Assembly (NCBI RefSeq): GCF_057098645.1
Contig: NZ_CM169472.1
DNA: 64,000 nucleotides
Direction: 5' to 3' (one strand)
A program made the position numbers. Shown piece after piece: positions 55,801 to 61,800 of this stretch. Numbering within the stretch: position 1 is the first letter of the stretch; every line of letters starts with the position of its first letter.

Positions 55801-58800
55801 TGTTAAGCATGGTGAAGTAAAGCGCATCGATATCAGGAATATCTCGCAGCTGGTGACGCGTTACGTCACCAACGCCGGGACGTTCAATTTTAATAACGTC
55901 AGCGCCAAACCAGGCCAGCATTTGAGTACAAGATGGGCCAGATTGCACACCGGTGAAATCGAGAACTTTAATTCCTTGAAGTGGAGTTGACATAGCAATA
56001 CCTATTAGTTAATTAAATATGTGTTAATTTAGCGTTTATTTAAGGCATAACGCCCTCTATAAATAATCCGCAAAATATCTTCGTAGCGGCACTCGATATT
56101 TTCACATTCCTGTATCAAGTGCTGAAAATCATTTCATCGCTACTTCCAATTCCTTTCTGCATGGTAAGTAGTGAGGACGAAAAGAAGAATATGATAAATA
56201 TTGGTTCGTGGTAATCAGAGAGAGTCGCGACATTTGTGATGTTATTCTTACAACTGTAAGAAGCGCCGGTGATTTACAAGTAAGGGTATGATTACGCTTT
56301 TTAAAGCGTACCATAAAATATAACATATTAAATGATTTGTGATGACACGGGATTATTGCGGTTTACTTTGAGGAATATAAAATGCGAGTTTATAGAACCG
56401 CGAGCGCCAAATAATTTTATGACCACAACCTGTCGTATTGTGGTCATAAAAAATTGTCGGCTGGAGGGAGTTAAATCCTTTACCTCAATATACTGCCTGT
56501 CAGCATTAGTTCACAAACAGTGCTTCGCTATCGACGATGATTCCATCTTCCGCACCTTTAAGCGCCAGGTTTGCCTCGTAGTATTGCTTTTTATCAAGCA
56601 GTTTCTGCGTATCAGCAAGTGCATTACGAGTCTGTTTAAGCGGCATCAGATATTGGTTTTCCATTACACCAACACCGGCCAGGCGAAGCTCTTCCATTGC
56701 GCCCTTTTTATCCCCTTTCGCCATTTTTTCATTGGCAATTTTTATCGCGGCTTCTTTTTCTGGTGTCGCTACATAACTCTCAGAAATTCCGACAGATGCA
56801 TTAATGACAATATATTGGTCATCATTGAGATTGGTCTTTTTACCTGGCTTAGCGAACTTTGCCCATTCGGTACTGTCATCTGACAACAAAGCGGAAGCTT
56901 CATTGGTCAGTTCTTTTGCCTTTTCCGGATCGCCATGAAACAGAGCCAGGCGCGCTACCTGCACGTCACGCATCGCATATAAACCTTGTTCAGAGATACG
57001 CTCTGCTGCTGCCGTTTTCTGGGTTTGCTGAACTTGCTGAGTTTGCTGTTGTGCCGCTACCGGTGCATTATCAGCAGCCCATACAGTTGAAGATGCCAGA
57101 ATTGCTGTGACCATCGTAGCCATAATTAAACGTTTCATACTTACCTCATTCTTTAACAGTTTTAGAAAACGCCGCCATCATATTGGGTGAGCATGAAATG
57201 AGAAATCAGAGAGCAACGGTCATTTTGAAAGGGTTATCTTACAGTTGTAGTTATTATCGCAAGAAGTATTTTAGTCTTACAATCGTAGGAATATGCTTCC
57301 TGTCACAGAGAACTATTCTTATATACCACAAAGAGATGTCATTTATTATATCGATGTAAATACTGATTAATTAAATGTAAATACAGCTATAACATCGTAT
57401 GTTCTCAGTGAACCATTTTCAGGATAACTTTCTATGAAAGTAAACTTAATAGTTTTTAGCTTATTTTTATTGGTCTCTATTATGGCATGCAATGTTTTTG
57501 CATTTTCCATTTCTGGTGGTGGAAGTGAGAGGAGCTATAAAGAGACGGAAAAAACATCAGCGATGACGACAACTCACTCTACAAAACTTCAGCCATCACA
57601 GGCAATTTTGTTTAAGATGAGAGAAGATGCGCCACCATTAAACCTCACAGAAGAAACCACGCCCCCTTTTCCGACAAAGGCGAGTTATCTTATTCATCCT
57701 GTGCGATAGCGTCTGTCACATGGTAGACTGGCCCCCTGAATCTCCAGACAACCAGTATCACTTAAATAAGTGATAGTCTTAATACTAGTTTTTAGACTAG
57801 TCATTGGAGAACAGATGATTGATGTCTTAGGGCCGGAGAAACGCAGACGGCGTACCACACAGGAAAAGATCGCAATTGTTCAGCAGAGCTTTGAACCGGG
57901 GATGACGGTCTCCCTCGTTGCCCGGCAACATGGTGTAGCAGCCAGCCAGTTATTTCTCTGGCGTAAGCAATACCAGGAAGGAAGTCTTACTGCTGTGGCC
58001 GCCGGAGAACAGGTTGTTCCTGCCTCTGAACTTGCTGCCGCCATGAAGCAGATTAAAGAACTCCAGCGCCTGCTCGGCAAGAAAACGATGGAAAATGAAC
58101 TCCTCAAAGAAGCCGTTGAATATGGACGGGCAAAAAAGTGGATAGCGCACGCGCCCTTATTGCCCGGGGATGGGGAGTAAGCTTAGTCAGCCGTTGTCTC
58201 CGGGTGTCGCGTGCGCAGTTGCACGTCATTCTCAGACGAACCGATGACTGGATGGATGGCCGCCGCAGTCGTCACACTGATGATACGGATGTGCTTCTCC
58301 GTATACACCATGTTATCGGAGAGCTGCCCACGTATGGTTATCGTCGGGTATGGGCGCTGCTTCGCAGACAGGCAGAACTTGATGGTATGCCTGCGATCAA
58401 TGCCAAACGTGTTTACCGGATCATGCGCCAGAATGCGCTGTTGCTTGAGCGAAAACCTGCTGTACCGCCATCGAAACGGGCACATACAGGCAGAGTGGCC
58501 GTGAAAGAAAGCAATCAGCGATGGTGCTCTGACGGGTTCGAGTTCTGCTGTGATAACGGAGAGAGACTGCGTGTCACGTTCGCGCTGGACTGCTGTGATC
58601 GTGAGGCACTGCACTGGGCGGTGACTACCGGCGGCTTCAACAGTGAAACAGTACAGGACGTCATGCTGGGAGCGGTGGAACGCCGCTTCGGCAACGATCT
58701 TCCGTCGTCTCCAGTGGAGTGGCTGACGGATAATGGTTCATGCTACCGGGCTAATGAAACACGCCAGTTCGCCCGGATGTTGGGACTTGAACCGAAGAAC

Positions 58801-61800
58801 ACGGCGGTGCGGAGTCCGGAGAGTAACGGAATAGCAGAGAGCTTCGTGAAAACGATAAAGCGTGACTACATCAGTATCATGCCCAAACCAGACGGGTTAA
58901 CGGCAGCAAAGAACCTTGCAGAGGCGTTCGAGCATTATAACGAATGGCATCCGCATAGTGCGCTGGGTTATCGCTCGCCACGGGAATATCTGCGGCAGCG
59001 GGCTTGTAATGGGTTAAGTGATAACAGATGTCTGGAAATATAGGGGCAAATCCACATGGCAGGTGAGCAATCATGTCTGATGCTGATGTGAACACCTGCC
59101 CAAATGAGCCATCCTGACCCACTACCGCCTGCCATACCCCACCATAAAGCGAATCATCAAGCCACAAGCCGGGGCAAGAAACATAAATATCCCCGTCACC
59201 AGTTCATTACCGCCTGTTAACCACATGGTGAAGTAATAAATGAGTGCAGCGAGGATCACCATGCCGAAGAAAGAAGAGACCGCCGATACCACGTTCAGTA
59301 CCTGACCGATGTAGCCGCTTACGCAGACAATACACAGGGCGAGAAACATCCATAAATAAATCATAGCTCAACCTCCTGCCGCGCTAAAAAACCTGTAACT
59401 TCAGTCACTTTAATAGTAAGACAATCCTTAACCTCTGGCAATTTTTGCTAAGCATCAATGAAAACAGCATGTTAAATGCAAGACTGTTGTGTACGGAAAA
59501 ATATTTACTTTGCACGATTAATAATCAGTAGCTGAAAGCAGTCAGCGAGTGATAAAGTACAGATACCGCATTCATGCTCCTCGTGGTTATGTCCTGACTA
59601 GTCTTTACACTCTTTACAGGAACCATTGTCGTACATGATGGCCTAATCAATTGAGTGTACCGCTGTCGACATGGAATCTTCTGCGATACAACAATTCGTA
59701 TCTACAGAAGGTAACTATGTTTCCACAATGCAAATTTTCCCGCGAGTTTCTGCATCCTCGCTACTGGCTCACATGGTTTGGGCTTGGTGTACTCTGGCTT
59801 TGGGTACAGCTTCCTTATCCTGTTCTCTGCTTTCTCGGCACGCGTATCGGCGCAATGGCGCGACCATTCCTGAAACGGCGTGAATCTATCGCCCGTAAAA
59901 ATCTGGAACTTTGCTTCCCGCAGCATTCTGCGGAAGAACGCGAGAAGATGATTGCCGAAAACTTTTGTTCACTCGGCATGGCGCTGGTAGAAACCGGCAT
60001 GGCGTGGTTCTGGCCCGACAGTCGCGTACGTAAATGGTTTGATGTTGAAGGGCTGGATAACCTTAAACGCGCACAAATGCAAAATCGCGGCGTAATGGTT
60101 GTCGGCGTCCATTTTATGTCGCTGGAACTGGGCGGCCGCGTGATGGGACTTTGTCAGCCAATGATGGCTACCTATCGTCCACATAATAATCAGCTGATGG
60201 AATGGGTGCAGACCCGTGGTCGCATGCGCTCTAACAAAGCGATGATCGGCAGAAATAATCTGCGCGGCATTGTCAGTGCACTGAAGAAAGGTGAAGCGGT
60301 ATGGTTTGCTCCCGATCAGGATTATGGTCGTAAAGGCAGCTCCTTCGCGCCGTTCTTTGCGGTAGAAAATGTCGCCACAACCAATGGCACCTATGTTCTC
60401 TCCCGTCTCTCTGGCGCAGCCATGTTGACCGTAACGATGGTAAGAAAAGCGGATTACAGCGGATATCGTTTGTTCATCACCCCAGAGATGGAAGGCTACC
60501 CGACAGATGAAAATCAAGCCGCTGCCTATATGAACAAGATTATCGAGAAAGAGATCATGCGCGCACCGGAGCAGTACCTCTGGATCCACCGTCGCTTTAA
60601 AACGCGCCCGGTGGGAGAATCGTCGTTATACATTTAACAAACTGCTCTGACTCTTTACCTCCTCACATAAGCCATAATAACCTCATGGTTTTTATGGCTT
60701 TTTTCTTAAGGTTTTTTCCTTCGCTGAACATCTAATTATTACCGTCAGAAATTAAACTGTCGCCGATATGAGACACCTGTAAGTTACTAAAAGTAAATAA
60801 GAAAATGCCTCTTGTCTCGTTTCAGTTTTAGGCGTACATTAGCGCCGTCTCGAGCAGTTTAGCTCAGAATTCTGGGGTGATGCCCACGGTAAAATACAGG
60901 ACTTTTAAGGTCGTTTTGCCCGGTGTCAACTCACTGTATCAGGTGTAATGAAGTCATTCAGGCGTAACAGCAATTACGCGGAGAGATGTAAAGTGAAATA
61001 TTTCTTTATGGGCATTTCTTTTATGGTCATCGTTTGGGCCGGTACTTTTGCCCTGATGATCTAAAAGCAAACTGTGCAATGAAAAACAGGAGCCATCAGG
61101 CTCCTGTTTGCATTTCTGAGGTCGGTGTTTATTCCGCGTTTTCGTGAATGTGTTTGCTGCTGGCGGGTAGTAAACCGTCGGCACGGAACATCGCTTTAAT
61201 CCCACGAATCGCCTGACGAATACGGTCGCGGTTTTCAATCAGTGCAAAGCGCACATGCGTATCACCATAGTCGCCAAAGCCAATCCCCGGAGAGACACAG
61301 ACCTTCGCTTCGTTAAGCAATTTCTTGGCAAATTCCAGCGAGCCCATGGCAGCATACGGTTCCGGTATTTTCGCCCAGACATACATCGAAGCCTTCGGCA
61401 TTTCGACCATCCAGCCCGCTTCATGCAGCCCTTTAACCAATACATCACGGCGGCGTTTGTACTGTTCGGCAATGTCGCGCACACACTGTTGATCGCCCTC
61501 GAGTGCCGCAATCGCCGCCACCTGCAACGGCGTAAAGGTGCCGTAATCGTGATAGCTTTTAATACGTGCCAGGGCGCTGACCAGCGTTTTGTTGCCAACC
61601 ATAAAGCCGATACGCCAGCCCGCCATGTTGTAGCTTTTCGACAGCGTAAAGAACTCGACCGCCACATCGCGTGCACCTGGCACCTGCATGATTGACGGCG
61701 CTTTCCAACCATCGTAGACGATGTCCGCATAGGCCAGGTCGTGGACCACCAGCACATCGTAGCGTTTCGCCAGCGCCACAACCTTTTCGAAGAACTCCAG

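Follow-up and report, generated by a model that had tools for sequence, protein, structure and literature searches.

An IS2 insertion between the convergent genes ypdI and yfdY in a strain close to Escherichia coli O145:H28

IS2, an insertion sequence (IS) of the IS3 family, transposes by a copy-out-paste-in route that passes through a figure-of-eight and then a minicircle, and the minicircle junction, in which the ends are spaced by 1 bp, forms a strong promoter, Pjunc (PMC3299598). Its left and right inverted repeats (IRL and IRR) have published lengths of 42 bp and 41 bp, respectively (Lewis et al., PMC3299598), and the heptamer A6G has been assigned a frameshifting role (PMC3299598). In many bacterial genomes, ISs have been found in excess between convergent genes, the position at which they disrupt least (Plague, PMC2942039). 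Here we describe a copy of IS2 that lies between the convergent genes ypdI and yfdY in a stretch of 64,000 nucleotides from contig NZ_CM169472.1 (NCBI RefSeq assembly GCF_057098645.1), referred to below as the window. IS2 and its 5-bp duplication are already textbook knowledge, and what is new is only where this copy sits, a strain polymorphism. We are nearly certain that this is a genuine, complete IS2 that entered the 76-bp ypdI-yfdY spacer by ordinary transposition, in a strain nearly identical to Shiga toxin-producing Escherichia coli (STEC) O145:H28.

The element, its ends and its target duplication

The element occupies positions 57724 to 59054 of the window, on the + strand, so that its genes have the same orientation as ypdI. 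As reference we used IS2A of E. coli K-12 MG1655 (NC_000913.3, 381260-382590, carrying insC1/insD1). The two elements are of equal length (1331 bp) and identical at 1327 of 1331 nucleotides; the four substitutions, at IS positions 32, 274, 606 and 900, are all silent or non-coding. Strain FDAARGOS_943 has a full-length copy with 100% identity, and many copies differ by a single mismatch. When the two terminal repeats are aligned with each other, the IRL (42 bp, 57724-57765, + strand, starting with 5'-TA) and the IRR (41 bp, 59014-59054, + strand, ending in CA-3') show 31 matches over 42 columns with one gap, the terminal bases being TAGACTGG...AAATCCA. The substitution A32G falls within the IRL. 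We considered it as a possible unusual change of this repeat and rejected the idea, since the first 63 bp of the element are matched exactly by 2,348 records, i.e. this is a common allele.

Both genes of the element are intact. The first, insC (orfA; 57815-58180, + strand), encodes a helix-turn-helix protein of 121 amino acids, the IS2 repressor TnpA (Pfam HTH_Tnp_1, E = 1.8e-19), and the second, insD (orfB; 58138-59043, + strand), encodes 301 amino acids with an integrase-core/DDE domain (Pfam rve, rve_3 and HTH_21). Their products are identical to InsC1 and InsD1 of K-12. Relative to orfA, which it overlaps, orfB is read in the -1 frame. The programmed -1 frameshift site is the slippery heptamer A AAA AAG (A6G, in the orfA frame) at 58132-58138 on the + strand, and a -1 shift there runs on into the GTG that opens insD. 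The fusion transposase OrfAB that such a shift produces (57815-59043, + strand, 409 amino acids), which we constructed from the sequence, is identical at every residue to a database protein named 'IS3-like element IS2 family transposase', and the RefSeq annotation of strain ZF34 contains the same 1229-nt joined coding sequence. Scores also exceeded the cut-offs of three NCBIfam models: IS2 transposase TnpB (723.9 bits, cut-off 597), IS2 repressor TnpA (238.8 bits, cut-off 229) and transpos_IS3 (279.5 bits, cut-off 160). The element is thus IS2 (IS3 family, IS2 group), and every defining feature that could be examined is present.

The boundaries were determined by direct reading and by script. 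The first base of IS2, at 57724, opens the sequence TAGACTGGCC (in a longer reading, TAGACTGGCCCCCTG), and the last, at 59054, closes GCAAATCCA (also given as GGGGCAAATCCA). Immediately outside lie two copies of CATGG, at 57719-57723 on the left and 59055-59059 on the right, where empty-site genomes have a single CATGG. The left junction, from site to IS2, reads GTCACATGG followed by TAGACTGG (also written GCGTCTGTCACATGG followed by TAGACTGGCCCC), and the right junction, from IS2 to site, reads GGGGCAAATCCA followed by CATGGCAGGTGAGC. The literal repeat of the flanks is 7 bp long (CACATGG), as the CA to the left of the target coincides with the last two bases of IS2; because the canonical IS2 end fixes the boundary, the length of the duplication is nevertheless 5 bp. 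Identity of two flanking 5-mers by chance has p ~0.001 at the local base composition.

As a control, the same inspection was applied to 12 other IS2 copies, namely K-12 IS2A, the copy in ZF34 and ten copies fetched through a protein look-up. All 12 had 5-bp duplications, at 10 distinct sites with unrelated sequences, and the ten distinct target pentamers had no obvious consensus in common. The target pentamer at the ypdI-yfdY site is itself polymorphic, CACGG being found in place of CATGG at two sampled empty sites.

An earlier note, made from the sequence alone, had described much of this. Its coordinates and its length of 1331 bp were exact to the base, and the complete IS2 with both terminal repeats that it reported agrees with the near-identity to IS2A and with the 42/41-bp repeats found here. 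Its insC and insD are indeed intact, judging by proteins identical to those of K-12 and models above their cut-offs. Re-inspection of the termini again gave identical CATGG pentamers on both flanks, and the distance of 14 bp that it gave between the ypdI stop and IS2 was recovered (the open reading frame, ORF, ends at 57709 and IS2 starts at 57724). Likewise, the placement that it proposed, between the 3' ends of convergent ypdI and yfdY, is borne out by the ORFs and by the annotation of the O145:H28 strain RM9872.

Simple insertion at a site empty in other genomes

With IS2 and one CATGG removed, 595 bp of joined flank are matched at 100% identity in many O145:H28 genomes. Of 5,426 complete E. 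coli genomes, 5,400 cover at least 80% of the reconstructed empty site (...GTCTGTCACATGGCAGGTGAGC...) as a single piece and count as empty; in roughly 23 genomes it is not covered in this way. Thus the empty site that the earlier note had predicted for strains lacking the insertion does exist, with a perfect match over its 595 bp in O145:H28. The 3 kb on either side of IS2 align with RM9872 without gaps at 99.92% identity, and the entire 64-kb window is collinear with that genome at 99.92-99.98%, interrupted at exactly two points, by IS2 and by an island of 14.8 kb at argW. In RM9872, K-12 and ZF34 alike, the two flanks of IS2 lie next to each other and are collinear with those of the window. 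Since the flanks are free of gaps and collinear with an empty-site genome, we regard the event as a simple insertion and not a rearrangement, and the preference of the earlier note for simple transposition is supported by this collinearity together with the 5-bp duplication.

IS2 as such is widespread: 4,058 of the 5,426 complete genomes have a copy covering 80% or more of the element, and the median is four places per genome. None of the 5,426 has IS2 between ypdI and yfdY. The only two high-coverage matches, strains ZF34 and ZF31, carry IS2 elsewhere, between frc and yfdX, and their ypdI-yfdY spacer is empty and 76 bp long. The exact left junction had no match in the GTDB representative genomes or in the JGI metagenome collection; a look-up of identical YfdY proteins led to ten sampled places, all with an empty site, and the exact look-up of OrfAB returned only sites other than ypdI-yfdY. 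Because it is absent from the genome and metagenome collections searched, we conclude that the insertion is private to this strain, or to a narrow lineage outside those collections, on an O145:H28-like backbone. The left junction, GTCACATGG joined to TAGACTGG, can accordingly serve as a lineage or typing marker.

This very rarity could be taken as a sign that an IS2 copy was misplaced during repeat resolution, IS copies being a classic source of misassembly and this insertion being absent from all other genomes examined. The empty site, however, has the pentamer only once, and a misjoin would neither duplicate its 5 bp precisely nor keep the two flanks in perfect collinearity with RM9872. Both the length and the ends of the element are, moreover, exactly canonical; we therefore consider an assembly artefact highly improbable. 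One may also ask whether IS2 here marks a rearrangement, either as the product of recombination between two IS2 copies or as what is left of a composite transposon. Most E. coli carry several copies of IS2, so recombination among them is common in general. Against this stand the identical flanking pentamers, flanks that are neighbours in RM9872, K-12 and ZF34 alike, and a script search that found no second IS2 end in the 64-kb window, and the probability that we assign to a rearrangement is practically negligible. Because the window is collinear and holds no second IS2 end, rearrangement, composite transposon and misassembly are all very unlikely, and we rejected them on the identical duplication and the collinear flanks.

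For the preferred reading, simple transposition of a complete IS2, published IS2 and IS3-family biochemistry suggests a course of events, which we apply here on the strength of the identity of the ends and of the transposase. In a donor IS2, the IRR would have been cleaved asymmetrically and joined close to the IRL, giving a figure-of-eight and then a minicircle. OrfAB, produced by the -1 frameshift at A6G, would then have joined the two IS2 ends to CATGG, cut with a 5-bp stagger, and the pentamer would have been duplicated when the cuts were repaired. The insertion was probably recent and lineage-specific, and the element may persist because, of all kinds of intergenic position, one where two genes end does the least harm. 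In the process the convergent ypdI and yfdY transcription units would have been pushed 1.3 kb apart. Transcription reading through from ypdI would enter IS2 in the sense direction, where the ribosome-binding site of insC is predicted to be hidden in a hairpin.

Possible consequences for ypdI, yfdY and their transcripts

The gene to the left, ypdI (57434-57709, + strand), encodes a lipoprotein of 91 amino acids that is identical to the annotated YpdI of RM9872. The gene to the right, yfdY (59122-59364, - strand), encodes a DUF2545 protein of 80 amino acids (Pfam E = 3.3e-42) that is identical to YfdY of the same strain. They are convergent, the native spacer between their 3' ends measuring 76 bp, and the coding sequences of both are unchanged by the insertion. 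What differs is the flanking sequence that each gene keeps: the native 3' flank of ypdI is cut off by IS2 after 14 nt, and yfdY retains 67 nt of its own, including an 8-bp stem, GGCAGGTG/CACCTGCC. Farther to the right, about 600 bp away and on the + strand, lpxP begins.

We asked whether IS2 could have displaced a terminator. A consensus scan found no intrinsic-terminator-like site in 57300-59500, and neither the spacer nor the right end of IS2 contains a predicted one. RNA of the native intergenic sequence folds no better than its shuffles (z = -1.1). The 8-bp stem starts within the target pentamer; a U-tract is missing on both strands, and after the insertion the stem remains with yfdY. A displaced terminator was therefore rejected, there being none in the scan, a spacer fold like that of shuffled sequence and a stem that lacks a U-tract. 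No known small RNA was detected either, as a search of 55000-62000 against Rfam gave no match at E <= 0.1. The suggestion of the earlier note that IS2 may alter termination thus found no support in these searches, and any effect related to termination would fall on the ypdI-yfdY overlap and on the 3' untranslated regions.

A hybrid outward promoter at the IRR junction fared no better as a candidate. The scan detected no promoter-like site at the junctions, and by our own inspection the hexamers that lie 16-18 bp past the -35-like TGGAAA of the IRR (CATGGC, ATGGCA and TGGCAG) include none that is -10-like; on these two grounds it was rejected.

In MG1655, ypdI-yfdY is one of 165 convergent 'excludons', pairs whose transcripts overlap in 50% or more of 58 RNA-seq samples (PMC12288877). 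Since the transcripts are reported to overlap there, and since the K-12 spacer is nearly the same as that of the window (2 of 116 positions differ), IS2 would be expected to part the overlapping 3' ends of ypdI and yfdY. The insertion is a possible natural test case for the reported overlap. The effect on the host is probably small. Retention of IS2 at this site fits the over-representation of ISs between convergent genes, and adds one more case of an IS kept in such a place.

The same overlap invites a different view, in which the insertion matters for regulation: the 1.3-kb separation would abolish the overlap of the ypdI and yfdY 3' ends, or transcription from the right end of IS2 would run antisense through yfdY and possibly into lpxP, so that expression of these envelope-related genes is changed. 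The listing of the pair in MG1655 speaks for it, as do the similarity of the K-12 spacer, the lack of a predicted terminator-like site in the right end of IS2 or the spacer, and the nearness of lpxP on the + strand. On the other side, P_IRL, the promoter of IS2, is reported to be weak and under repression by OrfA (PMC3299598), the junction has no promoter-like site and the hexamers following TGGAAA do not resemble a -10 element, and the absence of the insertion from all 5,426 genomes gives no sign of recurrent selection. We think that a regulatory role is unlikely. In its most specific form, IS2 would uncouple a native antisense interaction between ypdI and yfdY, mutual interference being replaced by sense read-through from ypdI into IS2 and by IS2-derived antisense RNA over yfdY, possibly reaching lpxP. 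This version we find quite unlikely, and if true it would amount to a strain-specific change in the expression of small envelope-associated genes.

Returning to the reading that we prefer, a low-impact simple insertion of a complete IS2, nothing that we found contradicts its structural part, i.e. the IS2 identity, the duplication and the collinear flanks. Several points do weigh against the rest of it. Near-neutrality is something that we infer, and given the transcript overlap reported in K-12, separation of the two genes could alter expression somewhat. The copy looks competent for transposition, judging from its sequence identity with active IS2; such a copy could give rise to new insertions in this genome and take part in recombination among IS copies there. 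Finally, in the predicted fold of a read-through RNA, CUCCAG of the IRL pairs with the Shine-Dalgarno sequence of insC, UUGGAG (z = -2.4). This sequestering fold is a prediction of moderate significance, and the pairing would limit accidental translation of transposase from read-through RNA.

IS2 also contains a near-perfect palindrome of 13+13 nt, TAGTCTTAATACT/AGTTTTTAGACTA, at 57774-57799, shortly before the ribosome-binding site of insC. The predicted read-through RNA has it folded into a hairpin, and it is a canonical feature of IS2, not peculiar to this copy.

The argW island and comparison with other elements

The second interruption relative to RM9872 is an integrase-bearing island of 14.8 kb (window 24559-39323) at the 3' end of argW, the gene for tRNA-Arg CCU at 24483-24557, with a direct repeat of 16 bp, CTGCAGGGGACACCAT, at its two boundaries. 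Besides the integrase, it encodes an NleD-like protein (XopG/HopH family), NleH and an NleB-family arginine glycosyltransferase, together with Bet, a protein resembling lambda exonuclease and, on the minus strand at 31315-32199, the ORF of an IS3-family transposase. Coverage of the window region 24400-49000 stayed below 80% in every complete E. coli genome. Together with the IS2 junction, this effector island sets the strain apart from otherwise 99.9%-identical O145:H28 genomes.

The ten IS2 copies obtained through the exact OrfAB look-up (from GCA_009931515.2, GCA_026013065.1, GCA_016942575.1 and GCA_013146805.1) differ in another respect, all being 1332 bp long with A7G instead of A6G, a form towards which a look-up of exact OrfAB is biased. 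A7G fuses orfA and orfB in frame, a change reported to make OrfAB the predominant product. These copies could be real high-transposase variants or could reflect homopolymer errors of assembly.

The IS2 copy in ZF34 and ZF31 lies about 2.3 kb away in the same neighbourhood, and it too has a 5-bp duplication (GGAGT). It is nevertheless an independent insertion, between frc and yfdX and in another lineage; in ZF34 it occupies NZ_CP047461.1 1536742-1538072, a second IS2 event in this neighbourhood. K-12 IS2A shares with the window copy the length of 1331 bp, the A6G frameshift window, the 5'-TA...CA-3' ends, InsC and InsD, and a duplication of 5 bp. It differs in the sequence of that duplication (ATTAC, as opposed to CATGG), in its chromosomal site and by the four substitutions.

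With the wider IS3 family (IS911, IS3, IS629 and IS150, which also use copy-out-paste-in), the element has in common an orfA with a helix-turn-helix and an orfB with rve/DDE that overlap in frames 0 and -1, a transposase made by frameshifting, imperfect terminal repeats and a short target duplication. In contrast to other members of the family, IS2 has an IRL that begins with TA and serves only as the recipient end, a minicircle junction that needs a 1-bp spacer, and an OrfA that represses P_IRL (PMC3299598). These traits belong to IS2 at large and are not novelties of the copy described here.

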